Shown: in pieces, positions 16,996 through 29,013 of the stretch
How the letters are laid out: every line of letters starts with the position of its first letter
Numbering within the stretch: position 1 is the stretch's first letter
Made by a program: the position numbers and the translations under genes
Notes under the pieces: model-generated
What the model was told of the DNA's origin: nothing
The model's database searches: none
The model's input: the letters and a program-made list of their open reading frames with translations, nothing else
Source: Candidatus Poribacteria bacterium
GTDB taxonomy: Bacteria > Poribacteria > WGA-4E > PCPOR2b
Assembly: GCA_965116925.1 (NCBI GenBank)
Contig: OZ220744.1
Span: forward strand, 4,992,001 to 5,056,000
Length of the DNA: 64,000 bases
Direction of reading: 5' to 3'

Positions 16996-18501
16996 CTAGT
17001 TGCCTTTCCTGAATACGCCGCGTAGCGTTTGGATCAGGGTGCCTTCGGCAAGCCACTTTCCAGCAACGCGCCAAACGATGCTCGAAAACGTCGGATAAAC
17101 ATGGATGATCCCTGCCAGCTTCCTTAATGGGATACCGGCGTTCATTGCCAAAACAAACTCGTGGATAACCTCGCCCGCATTTGGTCCGACTAGGTGGACA
17201 CCTAAAATTTTGCCCTTCCAGCGGGTTGCAATAACCTTGATAAACCCTTTCGTTTCTCCTTCAGCGACCGCCCGATCGACATCGTGTAGATCCACCCTGA
17301 AAACATCGATCTTCCCATGTTTTTCACGCGCCTCTGCTTCGGTCAAACCGCACCGAGCAACCTCCGGATCGCAGAACGTGGTCCAAGGGACGACGGAATA
17401 ATTTATGGCACTAGAACCGGGGAAGAATATATTCCGGACAATCTGTGTCGCTTGAAACGCTGCCACATGCGTGAAGAGGTAATGCCCGACCACATCGCCG
17501 GCAGCGTAGATATTTTTGACAGTTGTTTGCAACTTATTGTTGACCTCAATCCCCTGTTTTCCAATCTTGACACCGATCTTCTCCAGTCCCAGCCCCTCGA
17601 TGTTCGGCTTCCGTCCCGCCGCAATCAGGAGCCGATCAACGACGATTTCGCTTTCATTTCCTGTATCTGCTGCTTTGAGTTGGACCCGATACTCCTTCGA
17701 TGGCGTGGTATTTTGCGGTTCCCAGACCGCTATATCCGGATTGAGCTCTTCGTTAAGTGGAGTTTTTATCTGTTCGACCCGAACAGGATTGGTATTTAAT
17801 AGGATTTCAATCCCATCTTCTTGAAGATAACTCAACATTTTCTCCGAGACTTCGGTGTCCTCTTTCGTTAAAATTCGATCGCTGCGTTGCACAATTGTCA
17901 CTTTCGCGCCCAGACGGTGAAATGCCTGTCCGAGTTCAATCCCGATGGGACCGGCGCCTATCACCAATAGCCTCTCAGGTAATTGATCCAATTCCCAAAT
18001 ATTTTCGCTGTCCAGATAATCACCCGAATCCATTCCAGGGATATCGGGTGCAGTTGGACGGGAGCCGGTTGTAATGACAAATTTTTTGCTCTTGAGCGTG
18101 AGGGTTTGGTCGTTCTCCGTATCTTGCACCACAAAAGTTGTCGGCGACTCGAAGTGCCCTTCCCCAAAGATAACATCTACACCCATTTCGCGGAATCGTT
18201 CAGGGTTATCATGCTCTTCCTCAATGATGTGTTGGGTGCTACGGACATACGCCATGACGCGCCCAAAATCTACCTGACCGTCTTTCACAAGGAGGCCGTA
18301 TTTTTCAGCTTCTTTGATGTAATAGGCAATTTTTGCTGACTTTAGGAGGGCTTTCGATGGAACACACCCTGTCCAGAGGCAATCGCCTCCCAGTCGATGC
18401 TTCTCGACGAGGGCTGTTTTGGCCCCTAGCTTTGCACCTGCCACCGCGAGGACAAGTCCTGCGCTTCCGCCACCGATGATGGTTAGATCATATTCGTTCA
18501 T
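16996..18501 (-). CDS. Pyridine nucleotide-disulfide oxidoreductase (MerA/LpdA-like, no C-terminal Cys pair)
   Basis: IIGGGSAG, GGDCLWTGCVPSK redox disulfide, GAGPIG, GDV, HVYPT. Confidence 0.9.
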   Translation of the reverse strand: MNEYDLTIIGGGSAGLVLAVAGAKLGAKTALVEKHRLGGDCLWTGCVPSKALLKSAKIAYYIKEAEKYGLLVKDGQVDFGRVMAYVRSTQHIIEEEHDNPERFREMGVDVIFGEGHFESPTTFVVQDTENDQTLTLKSKKFVITTGSRPTAPDIPGMDSGDYLDSENIWELDQLPERLLVIGAGPIGIELGQAFHRLGAKVTIVQRSDRILTKEDTEVSEKMLSYLQEDGIEILLNTNPVRVEQIKTPLNEELNPDIAVWEPQNTTPSKEYRVQLKAADTGNESEIVVDRLLIAAGRKPNIEGLGLEKIGVKIGKQGIEVNNKLQTTVKNIYAAGDVVGHYLFTHVAAFQATQIVRNIFFPGSSAINYSVVPWTTFCDPEVARCGLTEAEAREKHGKIDVFRVDLHDVDRAVAEGETKGFIKVIATRWKGKILGVHLVGPNAGEVIHEFVLAMNAGIPLRKLAGIIHVYPTFSSIVWRVAGKWLAEGTLIQTLRGVFRKGN

Positions 18502-18513
18502 TTGGGTCGCGCC

Positions 18514-18996
18514 TCACCTCCGGCTTTTTGATTTAATCTGTCCCCACAGAGTGAGACGTTTTTCTTTCGGTTCAACTGCCACTGTCATTTCAATTGGATA
18601 GCCCGCGTCCCGCCATCCAGGAAACCCGCCTAGGAGCACCTTTATTCGCTCCGGGGGAAACCCAAACTCGTCTATTAACATTTGTGCCGCACCGGCACTT
18701 GTGGCTTCCGCCGGTCAGCTTCAGTATAAAACAATTAACCCTTCGGCGGGAAGTGTTTGGTGTCTCGTTTCAATCCCATCCGGAAATGGCATTGAGATGG
18801 CTCCGGGAATGTGTCCGAAGTTGAAATGAATCTGGCCACGCACATCAACCAGAGTTACCTTCTCTTTGGCATCTAATAGACGCTTAAGTTCTTTCGCGTC
18901 AATCCGCTCCGCTTGAGCGGCAAATACCTGAACGAGTAATTGCTGCTGAAGGAACAACACAATTATCCAAACAACGACTCTATTCAATCTTTGCAT
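18514..18996 (-). CDS. Exported rhodanese-like selenoprotein with U-S-U motif (160 aa; TGA at 18721-18723 and 18715-18717)
   Basis: AAGGAGG RBS and signal peptide; DVR, GHIPGA, IVLY-TGA-S-TGA-PAEATSAGAAQML...VLLGGFPGWRDAGYP completes the rhodanese fold; tail VAVEPKEKRLTLWGQIKS. Confidence 0.85.
18684..18698 (-). promoter_or_regulatory. Candidate bacterial SECIS hairpin
   Basis: GUGCCG-GUG-CGGCAC; G-starting loop 22 and 28 nt downstream of the two UGA codons. Confidence 0.55.
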
Positions 18997-19180
18997 CGGT
19001 TTGCCTCCTTGGTTGTGAATCGGTTTCAATTGTTCGCTATCCCTCACGCCACGGCGGTACTGTCCATGTATTGAACCAATTCCATTTCCACAGCACTTTC
19101 TTTGCCGGCATTTCCAATTCGTACTTGATACCAGCGGTAAAGGGTAGCAGCTTGGTTCTGTTGCCTACGGTTTCACGGAT

Positions 19181-19519
19181 CTATTCGATGAAGCTTAAGA
19201 CATCGGTGTTCTTGTGGATGGCAACGGATTTCCCGAAATTGTCGCCAGCCTCAGCATCATCAGCGGTGAGTTTTGCCTGCTGTATCCATGCCCTTCTATC
19301 ACGCACGAATATGCACGCAGATCCCGCCTTTTCTCCGCCCATATGAGTGTCAAGATGTGCGTCGACGATAGCAATGCCCTCACTGATGGAGACAGAAAAT
19401 GCAAACCATTCACCCTGCTGTCTATCGTCCGGTACAATTTCGACTTCGGCGGCGTAGATAATAGCCACCGTTCCGGTTCCTAAAATCAGACAAACCATAC
19501 AAATAGGTAAGGTTTTCAT
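19181..19519 (-). pseudogene. Truncated secreted FG-GAP repeat protein
   Basis: Signal peptide then about 1.5 FG-GAP_2-type repeats (AGSACIFVR..WIQQAKLTADDAEAGDNFGKSVAI), then abrupt end. Confidence 0.7.
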
Positions 19520-19816
19520 CGAGAACTCCTTTTAATGTAGGTGCCCATTGGGTTCAAGCACATTTTTGCAACCGGTGCTGTCAGTAATCAAAATATATCA
19601 TATCACGGTCTTAACTCCCTTTTCAAGGGTATATTTCGGCGGCAGTAAAGGCTCGGAACTACTCGCTGTGATGGTTGAGCACTAGGGTTAATTGGTTGAT
19701 GCGGTTTTCAATCGACAGTGCGGACCAACTGTTTTACGAACAGGAGCGTGGAAGGTAACACCGTTCCTAAAAGGGGATAAAGGAAAAATTGGAGTTATTT
19801 GGAATGAAGGACTTTG

Positions 19817-21241
19817 TTAATCATTTTCCGCCCCTATCTTTGCCGCAACAGTATATGCCCACCAAGGTCCCGAACTTCGACCAAGAAACGTAGCCCAATA
19901 CCATGCAGAGACATCGCTCCAACACTTGCCATCAGCATCGACAATTTGCTCGTAAACACGAAGGGTTTGATCCGAACGCCGTGCCCGGAAGCTGCCCCAA
20001 TGTGAATCATCAGCATCAATGTACATTGGGGCAGGTTCAATTGTGTAACCGATACCACGAAAACAGTCCGAGGCGGGATGGAGTTTCCGCGTCGCTTGCG
20101 TTACCCACCGTATCACTATTTCACGCTCACCGTTGGTGAAACGTCCTAACATGCCCGGAAATCCTTTGCCAAATGCTTGTTCTCTATCCGATAACGGCAA
20201 GGGTTGTATCGGCTGATTGTTAAATGTTTTCGGCCAGCCGGGAAACTGTGTTAGGTCATACACTGTATGCTTTGCAGGGGTAATTGCCGGCATTAAAGCG
20301 GCAAGGCTGCAGAGAATGACAAATACAACACGCGATGCCTGACGCGTGAAGCGTGAGATGTGGAACGTAAAATATGTCTGTCGTATTTTGCTGATTCGTC
20401 TCTCCGTCCATTCATCGATTTCTGTTCTTTCTCGAATACACTGAAGACTATACACGATCGCTGCTGCCGTGAACGCGAAAACAACCAGACCGATACCGCT
20501 GTGCCACCATGAAGGGGTCTCCAGAATTTCCGCTTCAATATAGAACAGGCTTGATGCTCTCAATACATTGCCGAGCAAGACAGCGATTATACCAATCGCG
20601 ACCGATGCCGTAAGCCTTAGCCATCCGAAACCGTAATAGGCTGCAAGGGTAAATGTCACAAACAGACCTGCCCACAGCATTCGTACGCCGCTGCATGGCG
20701 CATCGTATTGTATCATCTGGTCATTCCACACGAGCGCGGTGCCCGTTTGATCAACGGCAAGGCCGCCGAGCTTGAGAATCGGTACAGTCAACTTACCAGC
20801 GATAACTCGCGCCGGATAACCCAGATAGAATTGCATGGTAGAAGCAACTGGCAAAGCCAGCAGAAAGAGTGCCCATACAGACAACTGTGGCAATCGCCCG
20901 AAATACAAGAGATGCAGCGTCGTTCCTAAAGCGGTCACAGCGAAGGCTGCACGAATCAGCGGTGGAACAAAAGGATACAAACACACGTAGAGACCAACAA
21001 ACAGAATGACGGGTATTAAAGGGAGGTACGCCCTTTGCGGTATTCTCGGCTGCGTACACAGTAAGGCAGATGCAGTGATGAGAATCAGGAGGCCGAATAG
21101 GTCCGCTGGCGATTCCCACACACGATTCACATACCATGTCCATACGCGCCAGAATGCAATAATCTGCAAGGCGATTACGCCGATATGCCAGATGATGACC
21201 GTGCGCTGACGTGATGATTTTGGTGTCGAAGTGTGAACCAT
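19817..21241 (-). CDS. Exosortase/archaeosortase family protein with C-terminal soluble domain (XrtQ-like; start uncertain)
   Basis: Multiple TM helices; DAPCSG, GNVLR, WWH give the Cys-Arg-His triad; LHPASDCF in the C-terminal domain. Confidence 0.85.
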   Translation of the reverse strand: MVHTSTPKSSRQRTVIIWHIGVIALQIIAFWRVWTWYVNRVWESPADLFGLLILITASALLCTQPRIPQRAYLPLIPVILFVGLYVCLYPFVPPLIRAAFAVTALGTTLHLLYFGRLPQLSVWALFLLALPVASTMQFYLGYPARVIAGKLTVPILKLGGLAVDQTGTALVWNDQMIQYDAPCSGVRMLWAGLFVTFTLAAYYGFGWLRLTASVAIGIIAVLLGNVLRASSLFYIEAEILETPSWWHSGIGLVVFAFTAAAIVYSLQCIRERTEIDEWTERRISKIRQTYFTFHISRFTRQASRVVFVILCSLAALMPAITPAKHTVYDLTQFPGWPKTFNNQPIQPLPLSDREQAFGKGFPGMLGRFTNGEREIVIRWVTQATRKLHPASDCFRGIGYTIEPAPMYIDADDSHWGSFRARRSDQTLRVYEQIVDADGKCWSDVSAWYWATFLGRSSGPWWAYTVAAKIGAEND

Positions 21242-23649
21242 ATGATAAACAAAAGTGCAATTAGTAATAGTGCCCATACTTCGGGCTCAGGGATAGTTGG
21301 AACACTGTCTCGATCCACAGGAGTGAGCGAATTCGCCTCGTATTGCTGCGCGGTTTCCAAAACAACGGCGCCGCTGACCGGGGTGATAATATGATACCTC
21401 GAAGCAAGCTGGATTGCCTCCGACCGATTGCCTGCTGCATCTGTGCCGAGCGTGTGGAGAACTTCTTCTTTCGCCCACAGTGGTGTGATGTGATGTGAAC
21501 GCGGGTTGCTGGATAGCTCTTGGTCTACCTCGTATACTGGAATCCGCTTTCGTTTAATCTCAAATGTCGCCTGTTTTCCGTCTATCTTCTCAAAATATCG
21601 GTGTAGATCTGCTTTGATATCGCCAAGCCGAGGGATCACAGTCGCCTCCATTGCCCACTCCGCTTGATCCAAGAGACGGTTTGGACCGGCGGCTACAGAT
21701 AGAAGCGCAATGTCAGGGAATCTAACGAGACGCGCTATCGCTTGATCGAGCGTCGCATGGGTATTTTCAAAAGGCACGGGTTGAGGCCCATGAATCCATA
21801 ACAGCGTCCCCGGATCATAAGCTTCAAGAATCTGCATCGCAGATGCCAGGCCTGGCGCGTTGTTTTGTCCGCCGACCAGCCTGTACTTTCTCAGCATCTC
21901 GACAATTCTCCGCTTTTGATTTTCGTTCCAAGCTGACGGCTGAATCTGAGCCAGCGTGTCCGAAGCAATAATGAACCCGACTTCCACACCGCTGGGAATC
22001 GCGTTTAACCCCTCAATAATATCTTGAACCGATGGCTTGACCAGTGCTGAACCATCGAGCACGATGACTAAACCATCCGGTACTTCAGGCGTAGTCTCTG
22101 CTATCGTCTGGACAATTGCAAACCCTCCCTCATCCACCGAATCGAGTGTCCACGTTGTGTTGATGCTTGCATCACGAGCAACCGTAATGAATGCACTGGG
22201 CGAAGCAAGATCTTTGTCTCTGACCTCTCTGCTTAGACGATAGTGGTTGTGTGCGACGCGGCGGCTGTGCAAAGCGAGTCGAGTGCTTGTCTCCAGGGGT
22301 TGCTTCCCCTCGATCCAAAGGGTATGCCGAAAATCGTCTCTGAGATTGAAGTTCTGACTAACGAAAGTCGGCAAAACTAATCGTCCCTCATCAAGGTTTG
22401 CAAGATCAAGAGGTGCCGTTATGCCGATACGGTAGCGAAGTGTGCCGCCGTTGGGAGGCACAGGAAACGCTTGCGCGAGAATCCGCTCAGGTCCCTGCGT
22501 TGTCACTAGCAACGGATCCTGTCTTTTCATGACAACGCTTTCGTAGGCACGACGGACCTGTGCTCTGCCAGCAAACGCCGCTTCACGTTCCTCACCGTTC
22601 ACCCAGAGTGTGGCGCGTGAAACGACAGCGCCGGGCGGCAAGACAATCTGTGCGCGTGCCTCATGAGCCCGCGTTGCATTATTGCGAAACGTCATCGTCC
22701 ATTCGAGGTAGGCAAGGGCGCTATCGCCATCAACGGAACCATCAATGCGAGAAGATAGTAAATACAAGTCTCGGAGGCGGCTGCCAACTTGCGTGCCGCC
22801 TTGATTCAGGTCAAATTGAAAATCATTCAATATCTGCCAGGTGCCCCCAGCGTAGGGGGAGGGTCGTGAATTGAAGGGCTCACCTGTCACGCGGTAAAAA
22901 ACTTCACGTATCTTCGGCGTTGGGATATGTCTTCCGTTGATGTTAAGAAGCGAGGCAATGAGGCTCCAAGGCCCGCCTGCCAGACCCGTACGACTATAAC
23001 AGTAGCGTAGTAAGGCATCTTCGTCGCCAAACCTACGTAATAACTGAACGCCTCGTCTGTTGACTTCTGCTGAGGGTGCTGTCGCCCATCGGATGCCTGT
23101 TTTTGTAATTATCGTGGGTAACTCCAAGAGAATCAGCATACCAAATGCCACAGCAAGCCCTTTCCATAAGGGTGATTTCTGAGGTTCGATCTTTGTACGT
23201 TCTCGTTTACGCAACTGCTTGTATAGAAGACTTGCAGTAGTAAGCGAGACGAGCGGCGCCAGCGGAAGCAAACCGATACCGTAAAACACCACAGCGAACA
23301 CCGCCATTGGAAATATTGGCAAAAAGAGAAGCGTGTAAAATGCGGCGACACCAATAGCAGTTGCACCAAGAAATGCTAACAGCCGTGTGTGTTGGTTCAA
23401 TGCCCCACTTAATCTCCACCAGATGAAGCCATTTGCCGCCGGCACCAAACTCACTAACAGCACATGCCAGATCGTCGGGATTGGATTGAATAAAATTTTC
23501 GCACACATACGGGTCACCAGTTCAAATCCGATGACGCCTGCGGGGTAGAACACTCCTAGTAGGAGCATAGCCACGCTTGATTTTTTATTAGCGTTCGTTT
23601 TTTGATGGTTCTCTGTCTTTGAATTGCTTAATTGGTTTTGATTGGGCAT
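21175..23649 (-). CDS. Membrane VIT-domain protein with PEP-CTERM-type sorting signal
   Basis: N-terminal TMs; AYLEWTMTFRN..EARAQIVLPPGAVVSRATLWVNGEEREAAF; DPLLV; C-terminal TIPEPEVWALLLIALLFIIW then RH. Confidence 0.88.
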   Translation of the reverse strand: MPNQNQLSNSKTENHQKTNANKKSSVAMLLLGVFYPAGVIGFELVTRMCAKILFNPIPTIWHVLLVSLVPAANGFIWWRLSGALNQHTRLLAFLGATAIGVAAFYTLLFLPIFPMAVFAVVFYGIGLLPLAPLVSLTTASLLYKQLRKRERTKIEPQKSPLWKGLAVAFGMLILLELPTIITKTGIRWATAPSAEVNRRGVQLLRRFGDEDALLRYCYSRTGLAGGPWSLIASLLNINGRHIPTPKIREVFYRVTGEPFNSRPSPYAGGTWQILNDFQFDLNQGGTQVGSRLRDLYLLSSRIDGSVDGDSALAYLEWTMTFRNNATRAHEARAQIVLPPGAVVSRATLWVNGEEREAAFAGRAQVRRAYESVVMKRQDPLLVTTQGPERILAQAFPVPPNGGTLRYRIGITAPLDLANLDEGRLVLPTFVSQNFNLRDDFRHTLWIEGKQPLETSTRLALHSRRVAHNHYRLSREVRDKDLASPSAFITVARDASINTTWTLDSVDEGGFAIVQTIAETTPEVPDGLVIVLDGSALVKPSVQDIIEGLNAIPSGVEVGFIIASDTLAQIQPSAWNENQKRRIVEMLRKYRLVGGQNNAPGLASAMQILEAYDPGTLLWIHGPQPVPFENTHATLDQAIARLVRFPDIALLSVAAGPNRLLDQAEWAMEATVIPRLGDIKADLHRYFEKIDGKQATFEIKRKRIPVYEVDQELSSNPRSHHITPLWAKEEVLHTLGTDAAGNRSEAIQLASRYHIITPVSGAVVLETAQQYEANSLTPVDRDSVPTIPEPEVWALLLIALLFIIWFTLRHQNHHVSARSSSGISA

Positions 23650-24336
23650 CGTTAGGTCTCCCTAGCGTACTTGTAACCGTTGGGTATGATACAGTTTTGA
23701 GTAGCCGAATTGGTGCTGTCACTCAGCAACGTCTGATTGTTATGGCTAATCAGTTCAATTTTCGTATTGGGAATCCGATTCAGCAAAGAGAGCGAGTGGT
23801 CCCACACCCACAACACCTCCGTCGCTCGTTCATAATACCGATGTCAGTGCTTATAATCCACTGCGTCGCTCGGTACCAACGCCGGTCGGTATCACGCGAG
23901 TTACCTCAAAGATGCCGATACGGTCGTCGGATTTGACAAACTGTGCGAGCAATTTGAGTGCCAAATGGGTAAAATGGGGCGTTGAGAGATGACGATACAC
24001 ACTGAATAGCAAGCAGGGATTTATTCCAAGACCATTCGTTGGTGGTGGGTACAGAGGCGTGGGCCTATGGGTTACAGTGTGTGCACTAAACCACATAAGC
24101 TGTTTTGATAAGACCACACCCACTCCCTCTGTAGTTGAATGGCACTACCTTAAGGATTTTGGTGCTGAGAAAATTCCGTTGACACCTGTCATCGAAAGCG
24201 GCTTTAGGGTCAAATAAGAGTATTTATGAGGCGGTCGGAATGAGACGGTCTGCCCCATTTTCGCCTTTGATCGTCGTTTGGGTTAATGAATAGAACATCT
24301 TGCTAATGGACGAATCGTGCACCCTCTAAGAGCGTG

Positions 24337-26028
24337 CTAATCGAACTGCGTCATCTCAACAGCGAACCACAATGCCAAACTCCCTGTGCGGTCATCATAG
24401 CCGCTCAGTGCCTCTCGAACGATGTAATCCTGTTCCGTCTCTAATGCGCCTGTCCCTGTGCAGCCGTCAACCACATCGCCTGTTTCAGTAATCCTCGTTT
24501 TAGCCCCATTCCATAGGGATGATAGGGTTGGGAGATAGGATTGATCCAACACCCCCAATTTAATCCCTCTGGCAACCCCGTAACCGATCATGCAGGTGCT
24601 TGTCATTTCTTGATAACTACCCGGTAGGGTGATAACTTGATGGTAGCAACCCGATGGATCCTGATATTTTAACAACCCGTTCAACAATTTCTGATACATC
24701 AAAAGTATATCGGCGTATAGGGGATGAGATTGCGGCAGATAGGTCAATGCCTCTGCAAGCCCTAAAGCAGCGAACCCATTGCCCCTGCCCCAGTAAAAAG
24801 GGGTTTCTCTATCATGCCAATACAGTCCTGAAATCTGTTGTGTGCCCATTTCGACGAGGAAATTGGTCAGGAGGTCTAGATATTGCCCTTCTTGGGTCAG
24901 CGCATAGCTCCTCCCCATCATCGACCCAAGCATGAACATATCCTCCGTCCTCCATTTCGGATCTGCTGGAGCAGGGGGATTTGATCCGCTTAAATCAAAC
25001 CGATTTGCCAAATCTAAGAGGTAATTTTTATATCTTGGATCTTTGGTCACTCGGAACAGATCATCTGCCCATACCACTCCAGCAAGCGAGGCAGAACCGG
25101 GGGCATCGCCAAAACTGGTGGAAGGATCATCAACATAAGGATCGACCAACTGAAAAATATCATCGGGCACGTCTTGATTCATATGTTCCGCCAATCGAAT
25201 CCTGCCACTCACACCGACACCTTGAATGTAGTTGATCGGGGAATCTAGCTTATACCCAAACTGCGAGGCTAATACCTCACTCACCTCTTGTGCAGTTCGA
25301 TCCCTCCGTTTGCGGATTGCGGCTGCGGCAAGACTCGATGAAGATTGATCTGTGCCCCCAGAATCTATCACTTTGTGTAATAACTCAACTGTCTTTGATG
25401 CAACTTGCTCACTTGTTCCCACAATCCGGACTCCCGGTATCGATCCCAGATTGGATTCATGTTTCCGTCCCAGTGCTCCAATTAGACTGTCGTCGGAGAT
25501 AGGACTCGCTGCATCCACATCAGCCATAAAATCGGGAGCAGCCTCATTGGATTCAATCCTAGTTGATTCTCCAAGGGATAACTCAATCACTAAATCGGGA
25601 GCTTGGTAGGACACCCACCGCCAGATGTACCTACTCTCTGGTACTTCTGAATCAAAGAAGTAGTTTCCGTCGGGTGGGAATCCGTGCGTTAATTTTCCTT
25701 GAACTTCAGAGGTTTGTGAATTACCTATATATGTGTCATAGTCCAGACAGGGAATGTAGCTGATTGAAAGCGCGTTGAAACCATTGTAATGATTCGTAAC
25801 TGTGTCAATTACATTAAGGGCTAACTGAACATCAGCATCCCTCCCATTGCCCCCTCCGATAACCAGTATTCGGGTACAATCCCCAGAGAAATCGTAGGCA
25901 CTCTTATCAAGAAGGACGGGGATTTGGCAGCCATTTTTAGTTATCCCGCAATAGCTGATGTCTGAAGCAACTATCCCTTGTCGTACCAAGTTGTGTAGTG
26001 TTGATTCCAATGATTTATTTAAGGGCAT
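24337..26028 (-). CDS. GH88/GH105 family hydrolase with N-terminal degenerate M14 peptidase-like domain
   Basis: AGGAGG RBS; EDMFM, WGRGNGF, QDPSGCYHQV, EMTSTCM; N-terminal PESRYIWRWVSYQAPDLVIEL. Confidence 0.75.
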   Translation of the reverse strand: MPLNKSLESTLHNLVRQGIVASDISYCGITKNGCQIPVLLDKSAYDFSGDCTRILVIGGGNGRDADVQLALNVIDTVTNHYNGFNALSISYIPCLDYDTYIGNSQTSEVQGKLTHGFPPDGNYFFDSEVPESRYIWRWVSYQAPDLVIELSLGESTRIESNEAAPDFMADVDAASPISDDSLIGALGRKHESNLGSIPGVRIVGTSEQVASKTVELLHKVIDSGGTDQSSSSLAAAAIRKRRDRTAQEVSEVLASQFGYKLDSPINYIQGVGVSGRIRLAEHMNQDVPDDIFQLVDPYVDDPSTSFGDAPGSASLAGVVWADDLFRVTKDPRYKNYLLDLANRFDLSGSNPPAPADPKWRTEDMFMLGSMMGRSYALTQEGQYLDLLTNFLVEMGTQQISGLYWHDRETPFYWGRGNGFAALGLAEALTYLPQSHPLYADILLMYQKLLNGLLKYQDPSGCYHQVITLPGSYQEMTSTCMIGYGVARGIKLGVLDQSYLPTLSSLWNGAKTRITETGDVVDGCTGTGALETEQDYIVREALSGYDDRTGSLALWFAVEMTQFD

Positions 26029-26059
26029 ATAACCTCCTAAGAGGATGTTTTGAAAAGTG

Positions 26060-26593
26060 CTATGTCTTCTCGGTGCACTCACCTGACGCTGCGAGTTGCA
26101 GAATACGCTCAACAAATGGAGATTTTTCGTCCTGATATGCTTGTCGGTTGGTCGGGAACTGTTGAGCCAGTTTCAATTTGAGTTTGGCGTATTCTTCAGC
26201 TAACTCTGAATGCTGGATGAGATAATCTCTAAAGAGCAGCATATTTCTCCATCTATAACTATGCACCTCTAACATATGTATGTGATGGGTCCTCGGACTA
26301 CCTTTGACGAAATAATGTCGTCGGGGTATCCCGTATTCACCTCTATATTCATAGCCGAACTTCTCAATTGGTTTTATACAAATCGTAGCTTCCTCAAAAT
26401 TATGGATGGCTATACCTATGTCTAAGATCGGTTTTGCTGCCATCGTTGGAATAGAAGTGCTGCCTACATGCTGAATGTCCAAAACATAATTGCCAACAGC
26501 AGCTTGCAGCCGAGCTTTCTCTTGATTAAAAAGGTTTTTCCATTCCGACGTATAGGGAACAATTTTGATAACGCCTGCTTGTAAGCCGATCAT
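26060..26593 (-). CDS. GrpB (UPF0157) family nucleotidyltransferase-fold protein
   Basis: IQHVGSTSIP, AKPILDI, HHIH, FRDYL, YAKLK. Confidence 0.92.
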   Translation of the reverse strand: MIGLQAGVIKIVPYTSEWKNLFNQEKARLQAAVGNYVLDIQHVGSTSIPTMAAKPILDIGIAIHNFEEATICIKPIEKFGYEYRGEYGIPRRHYFVKGSPRTHHIHMLEVHSYRWRNMLLFRDYLIQHSELAEEYAKLKLKLAQQFPTNRQAYQDEKSPFVERILQLAASGECTEKT

Positions 26594-27570: not shown

Positions 27571-27660
27571 TCAGGATTTTTGATGATAACTTGTTTCATC
27601 AACTTTTCGCAGTGGAGACCCCGTTCTTTAGAGCGGGGAGGAAACTGCGCTCCTTTTTCG

Positions 27661-27689
27661 TTGAAAAGTTGTGTGAAATATGGTACAGT
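27661..27689 (+). promoter_or_regulatory. Sigma70-type promoter for tnpB of element 2
   Basis: TTGAAA-17 nt-TACAGT with TG extension, 6 nt before the leader. Confidence 0.65.
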
Positions 27690-27695
27690 TCTTAT

Positions 27696-27780
27696 GGCTT
27701 TCGTAGGGGATTTCTACCATCCCGAACCCTTCGGGATGTCCCCTACACCTCGTAGAAAAGGAATGAAAGCCAGAAAGCTA
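27696..27780 (+). ncRNA. Conserved structured 5' leader of tnpB, copy 2
   Basis: Same architecture as 3898-3979 with different but complementary helix sequences. Confidence 0.65.
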
Positions 27781-27786
27781 ACCCCT

Positions 27787-29013
27787 ATGAAAAAGAGTTA
27801 TGAATATCGCGCCTATCCTACGACGAAACAGCGACATACTTTTTTGGTTTGGCTTGCCTTGTTGCGCAATCTCTACAATCAAGCGTTAGCGTGGCGGATA
27901 GAGGCTTACCAGCAAAATAACGATTCTGTCAAATGGACGACCCAAGCCAACGCCTTACCTGACTTGAAAGCAGCCTCCAAGGCTTATGCAGGACTTCACG
28001 CGGATGTTCTCCAAGATGCGATGCGCCGTTTGGATAAAGCGTACAAAGCATTCTTCCGCCGTGCCAAGAACGGGGCGGCACCGGGCTTCCCCCGCTTCAA
28101 AGGCGAAGGGCGATACCGGTCAATGACCTTTAGCCACCTATCCAAGCATCTGGTCCGGAGTGTACATCGTAAGTTTGCCAAAGTCGTTGTTCCGAAAATA
28201 GGACACCTCAAGATCCGTTATCACCGCCCCTTAGCCGATGGCAACATCAAGAATCTGACGGTCATCAAGCGAGCCAGCGGTTGGTATGTAACTATCTGCG
28301 TCGAAGTGCCAGATCCTATAGAAGTCCCTGTCCACACAACGATCGGCGTAGACGTGGGACTTAACTCGTTTGCCGTAGATTCGGATGGCGAACATATCCC
28401 AAACCCCCGCCATTATCGTCAGTCTGAAAAACGCCTTGGTAAACATCAACGCGTATTGTCTCGCCGCAAAAAGGGGAGCCGCCGCCGGGCAAAACAACGT
28501 GAGATTGTCGCCCGTTGCCATGAACGGATAGCGAATCAGCGCAAGGATTTCCAGTTCAAGGCAGCCCATCGTATCATTCAACGGTGCGACGAGGTTGCTG
28601 TAGAGAATCTGACCATCACCAATATGTTGAAGAACCACTACCTCGCCAAGAGTATATCTGACGCGGGCTGGGGTAGCTTTCGATTGAAACTGCAAAGCAA
28701 GGCTGCAAGTGCCGGCAAGCAGTTCACCAAAGTGAAGCCTCACCATACCAGTCAGAAATGCTCCGGTTGCAATGAAGTTGTGCCTAAACAGTTGTCGGAT
28801 CGTCTCCATGATTGTCCCCATTGTGGGTTGGTCCTCAATAGAGACCATAACGCTGCGATAAATATCAAAAAGGCTGCTGTAGCCTTGCGTGAAGGTGCGT
28901 CGGTTGCAAACGACCCCGAAATCCCCTGTCCGGGGACAGAAGCGCGAAACTTTGTAAGACCCGTTGGACGGACGTTTCAAACAAGCACCGTCCCTTCAGG
29001 GCGGGGTAACTGA
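27787..29013 (+). CDS. tnpB: RNA-guided endonuclease TnpB (alternative start 27763)
   Basis: SYEYRAYPT, GFPRFK, GVDVG / VENL / RDHNAA RuvC triad, zinc finger; frame runs through the right end. Confidence 0.95.
   Translation: MKKSYEYRAYPTTKQRHTFLVWLALLRNLYNQALAWRIEAYQQNNDSVKWTTQANALPDLKAASKAYAGLHADVLQDAMRRLDKAYKAFFRRAKNGAAPGFPRFKGEGRYRSMTFSHLSKHLVRSVHRKFAKVVVPKIGHLKIRYHRPLADGNIKNLTVIKRASGWYVTICVEVPDPIEVPVHTTIGVDVGLNSFAVDSDGEHIPNPRHYRQSEKRLGKHQRVLSRRKKGSRRRAKQREIVARCHERIANQRKDFQFKAAHRIIQRCDEVAVENLTITNMLKNHYLAKSISDAGWGSFRLKLQSKAASAGKQFTKVKPHHTSQKCSGCNEVVPKQLSDRLHDCPHCGLVLNRDHNAAINIKKAAVALREGASVANDPEIPCPGTEARNFVRPVGRTFQTSTVPSGRGN

Follow-up and report, generated by a model that had tools for sequence, protein, structure and literature searches.

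Two in-frame UGA codons and one conserved hairpin in an apparently exported rhodanese of Poribacteria

RESULTS

A rhodanese reading frame that continues through two TGA codons

The stretch of DNA analysed here (the window) comprises 64,000 nucleotides from the genome of a Candidatus Poribacteria bacterium, which is assembled as a single contig of 6.47 Mb. On the minus strand of the window, a coding sequence runs from an ATG at position 18996 to a terminal TGA at 18514-18516 (18514..18996), preceded by an AGGAGG ribosome-binding site (19004..19009, minus strand) 7 nt 5' of the start codon. The frame consists of 91 codons, the triplets TGA-AGC-TGA, 66 further codons and the terminal TGA, and would give a protein of 160 aa with both internal TGA codons read as selenocysteine (Sec); its orthologues have the same frame and a similar length. 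The in-frame context is Y-TGA-S-TGA-PAEATSAGAA, in which the first codon (UGA1, 18721..18723) would specify Sec92 and the second (UGA2, 18715..18717) Sec94. A program-made list of ORFs ends this one after ...GLIVLY, at the first TGA, and the public protein collection carries the same 91-aa truncated form; the 160-aa read-through form with Cys at both sites was not found in that collection. A first-pass annotation of the window had proposed a hidden frame through two in-frame TGA codons that standard annotation would miss, and our analysis confirms both the frame (160 codons plus the terminal TGA) and its omission. Contigs from three other sequencing runs cover the gene, and the TGA codons are unchanged among the 40 matches listed. 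Contigs from RNA libraries also lie over the gene, which does not in itself demonstrate transcription.

The two TGA codons fall within a rhodanese domain (18607..18897, minus strand; residues 34-130; Pfam PF00581, E 2.1e-14), which scored 54.2 bits against a gathering cut-off of 22.2. The match crosses both codons, and the read-through part holds the second half of the domain, as had been proposed. An AlphaFold2 model built from a 140-sequence alignment gave a confident rhodanese fold (mean pLDDT 91.9; 65-74 in the C-terminal tail), and its best Foldseek matches were rhodanese domains. In the alignment, codon 92 occupies the canonical catalytic-Cys column of rhodaneses and is Cys in other family members, while position 94 is Sec in every Sec-containing member seen.

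Residues ~1-27 (18916..18996, minus strand) were recognized by eye as a probable signal peptide with a basic N-region, a hydrophobic core and a V-F-A-A cleavage region, and a crude hydropathy rule detected a hydrophobic N-terminal stretch in 48/48 orthologues. Both observations support the signal peptide of the first-pass annotation, and the protein is probably exported by this route. Export is not required for the U-x-U arrangement (UxU), since UxU members of ~105 aa without a signal peptide exist, for example at loci L086, L106, L127 and L154. At the other end of the protein, within the last 20 residues, lies a tail of the type A-V-x-P-x-x-K-x-x-x-x-W-G-x-I-K (18532..18579, minus strand) that is common to other signal-peptide proteins of the host. 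The tail is ~17 residues long, with the general form [AS]V-x-P-x-x-K-L-x-x-x-W-G-x-[LI]-K, and is present in 40/48 Poribacteria orthologues. By a strict pattern, 42 host ORFs end in it and none has it solely internally; 37 of these 42 are signal-peptide-like, compared with 823 of 3869 long ORFs. The tail-bearing host proteins are mostly signal-peptide proteins of ~300 aa (LamG-like, TolB-like propellers), and in four proteins tested the tail had no Pfam or NCBIfam match. The accessible passages of a study on Poribacteria (PMC3909097) mention only a possible TIGR04183-like C-terminal domain, which might correspond to the rhodanese tail. We regard the tail as a candidate lineage-specific envelope-sorting signal, apparently undescribed. 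Since it is encoded 3' of both UGA codons, only a protein made by read-through would combine the signal peptide with the tail.

The next gene (16996..18501, minus strand), 12 nt downstream, resembles FAD-dependent disulfide oxidoreductases (PRK06370/MerA/LpdA-like) with scores below every cut-off shown, and is treated here as a neighbour only. The encoded flavoprotein ends without a Cys-Cys pair, and it is adjacent to the rhodanese gene in 11/48 loci, all in the host genus. No conserved operon was found among 118 neighbour ORFs of 64 UxU loci from outside Poribacteria, whose families recur in few loci at most; since the neighbours are not conserved, they indicate no pathway. A GH88-like gene is the immediate upstream neighbour of the rhodanese gene in 18 close relatives; in the host it is 5.3 kb away (24337-26115). 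The intervening segment (19030-24330, minus strand) holds a VIT-domain protein whose end by eye resembles PEP-CTERM, a gene that matches exosortase Q below the cut-off and an FG-GAP fragment. The contigs of related strains depart from the host sequence at 19027, and the segment looks like a recent insertion. Further along, an ORF at 27580-29013 (plus strand) resembles an IS200/IS605-family TnpB nuclease by eye. Two divergent members of the family, L063 (genome G008) and L061 (G007), lack the tail and lie beside ORFs that by eye resemble heavy-metal efflux and YHS-type proteins; L063 has a long extension at its C-terminus that contains HEAT-like repeats.

The host encodes the selenocysteine machinery

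A double-Sec reading presupposes a Sec machinery in the same genome. Profile searches found selA, selB, selC and selD, all above curated cut-offs, with selA, selB and the tRNA-Sec gene adjacent to each other; the tRNA-Sec (76.6 bits) has a TCA anticodon, and selD itself contains an in-frame TGA with a hairpin. Among 176 Poribacteria genomes, 163 have selA above cut-off. TGA is the terminal stop of 484 of the 1611 long ORFs of the host, which rules out a genome-wide reassignment (tables 4 or 25). In the host genome, a coarse scan gave 65 TGA read-through candidates, and most of the 20 examined (L066-L085) lie in known selenoprotein-type domains or have the TGA at Cys-like sites, three (L070, L082 and L084) being doubtful. 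With their SECIS-like hairpins, they include formate dehydrogenase alpha, SelW-like, AhpD-like and several peroxiredoxin/thioredoxin types as well as PrdB-like, MoeB, HMA, DUF3179 and DUF5069 types, a DUF4159 pair and a SnoaL fusion. A MetE-like enzyme beside selD is also among the host candidates.

Conservation and selection within Poribacteria

The 176 Poribacteria genomes contain 48 orthologous loci in 47 genomes, host included, at 42-99% identity. The orthologue is present in 18 of the 19 other genomes of the host genus, and close orthologues occur in named Poribacteria records. The UGA1 column holds TGA in 39 loci and TGY in nine, and the UGA2 column holds TGA in 48/48, giving 39 U-S-U and nine C-x-U loci; neither C-x-C nor U-x-C was seen among the 48. 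Neither the rhodanese query nor the pattern found an orthologue in family f4 (112 genomes). Most of these genomes have retained selA, and a lineage-wide loss of the UxU rhodanese is possible there. Three C-x-C pattern matches checked in family f4 are not rhodaneses (HNH nuclease-like by eye), and the paralogue L014 was dropped as a member with one TGA because only its terminal stop fell inside the match.

In 19 sequences of the host genus, dN/dS was 0.19 before the UGA codons and 0.19 after the hairpin described below; in 10 sequences of a second genus the values were 0.12 and 0.24. By contrast, dS was 0.036 in codons 95-105, across the hairpin, versus 0.49-0.56 elsewhere. Thus, two results that could have spoken against the first-pass annotation came out in its favour: all 48 loci carry only TGA or TGY at both positions, and selection is not relaxed downstream of the UGA codons.

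A conserved hairpin downstream of the two codons

A hairpin (GUGCCG-GUG-CGGCAC; 18684..18698, minus strand) lies where the first-pass annotation had placed it. As a 6-bp stem it has a folding energy of -8.0 kcal/mol and its loop starts 22 nt past UGA2 and 28 nt past UGA1; in the 5-bp family consensus, with a loop N-G-(U/G)-N-N, the distances are 21 and 27 nt. The folding energy alone is within chance (z -0.5 to -1.5). The hairpin nevertheless exceeds chance, since it is conserved and covarying and since such a hairpin follows only one of 484 ordinary TGA stops of the host genome at that spacing. The minimum-energy fold in the host is a long alternative stem that includes UGA2; it is not common to the orthologues and was rejected.

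In 98 distinct sequences, the five pairs from +17:+31 to +21:+27 (numbered from UGA2) were formed in 99.2% of 490 cells, compared with 21-63% for control stems slid along the alignment. The stem shows 34 double-sided changes, a number that none of 500 shuffles reached, although kinship among the sequences inflates this covariation and the codon counts given below. Of all column pairs, +18:+30 has the highest mutual information, both positions being synonymous third bases. The loop G (G+23) is present in 98/98 sequences, although the codon to which it belongs specifies Arg, Gly, Ser or Trp. The complete set of five pairs is found in 91/94 CxU and 31/32 UxU genes, but in only 3/23 CxC genes, and the position is identical in CxU and UxU genes (21 nt past UGA2, 27 nt past UGA1). 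The best G-loop hairpin starts 21-22 nt past UGA2 in 71 of 73 UxU genes collected with a pattern that excluded the loop and 3' arm. The published bacterial SECIS model has a loop of 3-9 nt with G in its first two positions, a stem of 4-16 bp, a spacing of 16-37 nt and an MFE of -7.5 or lower, as given in the accessible text of PMC13188914; the present hairpin, with its 6-bp stem, GUG loop, spacings of 22 and 28 nt and -8.0 kcal/mol, falls within it. Judged by its covariation, the invariant loop G and the low dS, the hairpin is a real SECIS.

Just 8/117 UxU and 3/102 CxU sequences have a further G-loop hairpin 16-24 nt past codon 1. A small hairpin N-GC-NGAA-GC-N, with its loop 11 nt past UGA1, seemed to covary within the Poribacteria UxU genes, but was rejected as a SECIS for UGA1: in the 98 sequences only 44.9% of its cells are paired and its double-sided changes are no more frequent than in shuffles. 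As the search for a second SECIS found none, a single element probably acts for both UGA codons. The first-pass annotation had raised this as a possibility, and the fixed hairpin in CxU and UxU genes alike supports it. In other candidate selenoprotein genes of the host the spacing is 16-26 nt, and UGA1, at 27-28 nt, is just outside this range. UGA1 may therefore be poorly read, and much of the product may end at residue 91.

Distribution of the UxU, CxU and CxC states

A search of GTDB (one genome per species) with the DNA pattern [YF]-U-x-U-P-x-E-x-[ST]-S gave at least 119 stretches, of which at least 107 are rhodaneses by a profile made from the orthologues (E<1e-5). Among the matches listed, the verified UxU loci fall into Thermodesulfobacteriota (31), Chloroflexota (27), Poribacteria (13), a Myxococcota label (8), Nitrospirota (7), Pseudomonadota (3), Binatota (1) and Nitrospinota (1), with 16 unlabelled; UxU rhodaneses thus occur under at least eight phylum labels. 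Four of five such GTDB genomes checked have selA. With C or U allowed at both sites, the 120 metagenome matches listed comprise 94 CxU, 23 CxC (both sites Cys) and three UxU stretches, and no UxC. Two class-wide samples of 201 genomes each gave 21 matches (6 UxU, 15 CxU) and nine matches (2 UxU, 7 CxU), counts that each include the centre genome, picked for having UxU, and whose 30 matches carry no profile check. Non-rhodanese pattern matches, truncated loci and, as a guard against double-counting, named Poribacteria records were left out of the counts. Overall, U-x-C is found in none of 198 loci (48 orthologues, the 120 metagenome matches listed and 30 class-sample matches). The combined counts make UxU a minority state overall and the majority state in Poribacteria. 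With at least 107 verified GTDB loci, UxU is less rare than the first-pass annotation had supposed.

In a FastTree phylogeny of 211 rows with both sites masked, which is unrooted and built from few columns, position 1 requires at least 22 changes, four of them forced by starred branches, and position 2 requires nine. One clade of 63 rows has no UxU members; five of six scanned members of this clade have a weak partial VTT/DedA match upstream. Many fusions of VTT/DedA and rhodanese with C-x-U and the same SECIS were also seen in metagenome loci (e.g. L211, L236, L237 and L245), and a long open upstream frame accompanies 30 CxU and 15 CxC matches. Such membrane-fused C-x-U selenoproteins would appear as truncated in annotation.

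The nucleotides next to codon 1 differ between the two states. A U directly follows UGA1 in 1/117 UxU sequences and follows TGY in 21/102 CxU sequences. Outside Poribacteria, the ratio of Ser codons is AGC 6 : TCN 1 after TGA and AGY 6 : TCN 24 after TGY. UGA followed by U is a strong stop context, and the near absence of U after UGA1 fits selection against termination there. An apparent preference for C before UGA1 (TAC in 38/39 Poribacteria UxU genes) was not upheld more widely: C precedes codon 1 in 86/117 UxU and 73/102 CxU sequences.

DISCUSSION

Two selenocysteines or one

We conclude, with a probability of roughly 0.9, that the gene encodes a double-Sec U-S-U rhodanese, as the first-pass annotation proposed; the Sec machinery, the TGA/TGY conservation, the pattern of selection and the SECIS all agree with Sec insertion at both codons. 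That the locus is a pseudogene or an assembly error, the 91-aa product being everything, is extremely improbable. The 91-aa entry in the public collection would fit it, but the same two TGA codons recur in 39 loci of separate Poribacteria genomes and in at least 107 GTDB loci, purifying selection persists downstream of them and the hairpin covaries; conservation across independent assemblies refutes it. A more serious but still very unlikely alternative is that only UGA2 encodes Sec, UGA1 being read as Cys or Trp by a near-cognate or suppressor tRNA or mostly terminating translation as a selenium-dependent throttle. The long distance from UGA1 to the loop relative to the host's other candidates and the frequent switching of position 1 between TGA and TGY are what such a role would lead one to expect. 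Yet 27 nt is within the 16-37 nt range in the accessible text of PMC13188914, TGA is an ordinary stop in the host, position 1 alternates with Cys codons alone in many phyla, and the SelB-loaded hairpin would be present while UGA1 is in the A site.

In the mechanism that we propose for the double-Sec protein, SelB-GTP-Sec-tRNA on the one hairpin would supply Sec at UGA1, with the loop 27 nt away, and would deliver it a second time at UGA2, two codons further on and 21 nt from the loop. UGA2 would be the primary Sec site, through which selection maintains the hairpin, while UGA1 would arise from a Cys codon only where the hairpin already exists, as an opportunistic second use. The chain would exit via its signal peptide, and the lineage-wide C-terminal tail probably sorts it to the envelope. 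We consider it fairly likely that this holds for the family as a whole, that is, that one SECIS fixed by UGA2 recodes UGA codons 6 nt apart, that the first Sec came and went often but, in the listed loci, never stood alone and is missing from the 63-row clade with the membrane-fused VTT/DedA forms, and that these proteins form a widespread, unannotated and mostly exported diselenide class.

Possible chemistry of the U-x-U site

The active-site loop C/U-x-C/U-P-x-E-x-x-S is invariant in the family; compared with the common rhodaneses in the alignment it has two additional residues, and it contains an invariant Glu but no Arg. In GlpE-type sulfurtransferases the active-site loop is short and a basic residue follows the catalytic Cys, a feature that is absent here, and the match to NF001195 reached 24.4 bits against a cut-off of 102. 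Outside Poribacteria, 11 of 64 UxU loci are fused to a multihaem cytochrome with eight CxxCH motifs. These loci (L090, L091, L093, L096, L101, L108, L109, L116, L136, L141 and L163) come from deltaproteobacterial genomes; the UxU rhodanese is fused N-terminally to the multihaem part, which matches PF13447, with a weak match to hydrazine dehydrogenase. Standard annotation would split such fusions at the TGA codons.

The multihaem fusions point to electron-coupled extracytoplasmic chemistry. By a narrow preference, we suggest a redox pair of Sec92 and Sec94 at the rhodanese site, as a diselenide or selenyl-persulfide, which would act on extracytoplasmic sulfane-sulfur or selenium species in transfer or reduction, and not as a thiosulfate:cyanide rhodanese. 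The rhodanese fold and the place of Sec92 in the canonical catalytic column would also suit a classic thiosulfate sulfurtransferase, with Sec92 as the carrier of the sulfane sulfur and Sec94 in an accessory role. The two extra loop residues, the invariant Glu and the missing Arg argue against such transfer, and the position that is always Sec in Sec-containing members is 94, not 92, which makes this role unlikely. Equally doubtful is a U-x-U site that binds and hands over soft metals (Cu, Ag, Hg) on a rhodanese scaffold. Loci L061 and L063, in heavy-metal efflux-like clusters with CusA-like and YHS-like ORFs (by eye), a few other UxU loci with HMA/P-type ATPase, cupredoxin, multicopper oxidase or YHS neighbours and the MerA-like gene downstream in the host would be in keeping with it. 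However, only a small fraction of the 118 scanned ORFs are of the metal type, thioredoxin-, DsrE- and disulfide-reductase-type neighbours are about equally frequent, the downstream flavoprotein has no terminal Cys-Cys pair and is adjacent in just 11/48 loci, and the multihaem fusions fit electron transfer better.

Significance and comparison with known systems

Bacterial SECIS elements are usually taken as one hairpin per UGA with a narrow spacing. The family offers more than 100 natural cases in which one small hairpin seemingly serves two UGA codons 6 nt apart; CxU and CxC genes provide matched controls, and the spacing tolerance of SelB is therefore directly testable. If the reading is true, Sec decoding in bacteria has a natural experiment in this family, with relevance for the production of multi-Sec proteins in bacteria. 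The gene is one more member of a large, hidden selenoproteome in Poribacteria, and a double-Sec reading corrects the annotation error that the 91-aa fragment in public collections represents.

Single-domain rhodaneses such as GlpE (1GMX), BH2092 (3NHV) and Alr3790 share the fold (TM-score ~0.7 to 3NHV) and have their nucleophile in the column of Sec92, but they lack the C-x-C/U-x-U-P-x-E loop and no Sec occurs among the matches shown. No solved structure of the UxU/CxU rhodanese family was found. The best NCBIfam match is NF041203 (rhodanese_LYCAU, E 8.1e-20), with the Y-C/U-x-U-P-x-E-x-x-S loop common to both; of the 140 aligned relatives, 63, including UxU ones, match this model at E<=1e-25. 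Sec at the second position of this loop is found in 48/48 orthologues, the first position being U here and C in nine. The present protein differs in having two Sec instead of one and an extra C-terminal tail, and it scores 70.8 bits, below the cut-off of 115. By that model, it is a related subfamily and not a member of the NF041203 equivalog.

SelL likewise has two close Sec in a redox motif (UxxU), and its genes reportedly use one SECIS for both Sec, with a diselenide formed. SelL has a thioredoxin fold with UGA codons 9 nt apart, whereas here the fold is that of a rhodanese and the distance is 6 nt. UxxU proteins with two Sec and TsoB, a rhodanese/DsbD fusion with UxxxxU, appear in the accessible text of PMC13188914 (2026), which lists the rhodanese family itself as CxU with one Sec, as does that of PMC9312934 (2022) for CxU; the UxU loci correct the current list of one Sec in the former.

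The closest precedent is a UxU form of a rhodanese-related sulfurtransferase from Olavius algarvensis symbionts (PMC1976440, 2007), which shares the rhodanese family and the second Sec that gives UxU, and a UxU member from an Olavius Delta 3 genome (L155) was recovered in our GTDB scan. UxU in this family is therefore not new. We found no other report of a UxU rhodanese, its SECIS or its occurrence in Poribacteria in the accessible literature, whose supplements could list members, and the accessible parts of PMC2398784, PMC10778597 and bioRxiv 2022.07.06.499078 hold nothing on a UxU rhodanese. The Olavius protein was described as one new form, in passages that are silent on a SECIS. In Poribacteria, by comparison, UxU is the majority state in the 47 genomes with the gene, and comes with a signal peptide and a lineage-specific tail. 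The present analysis adds the breadth of the family, the tail, the asymmetry of U-x-C and the evidence for a single SECIS, for which CxU and CxC genes served as controls.
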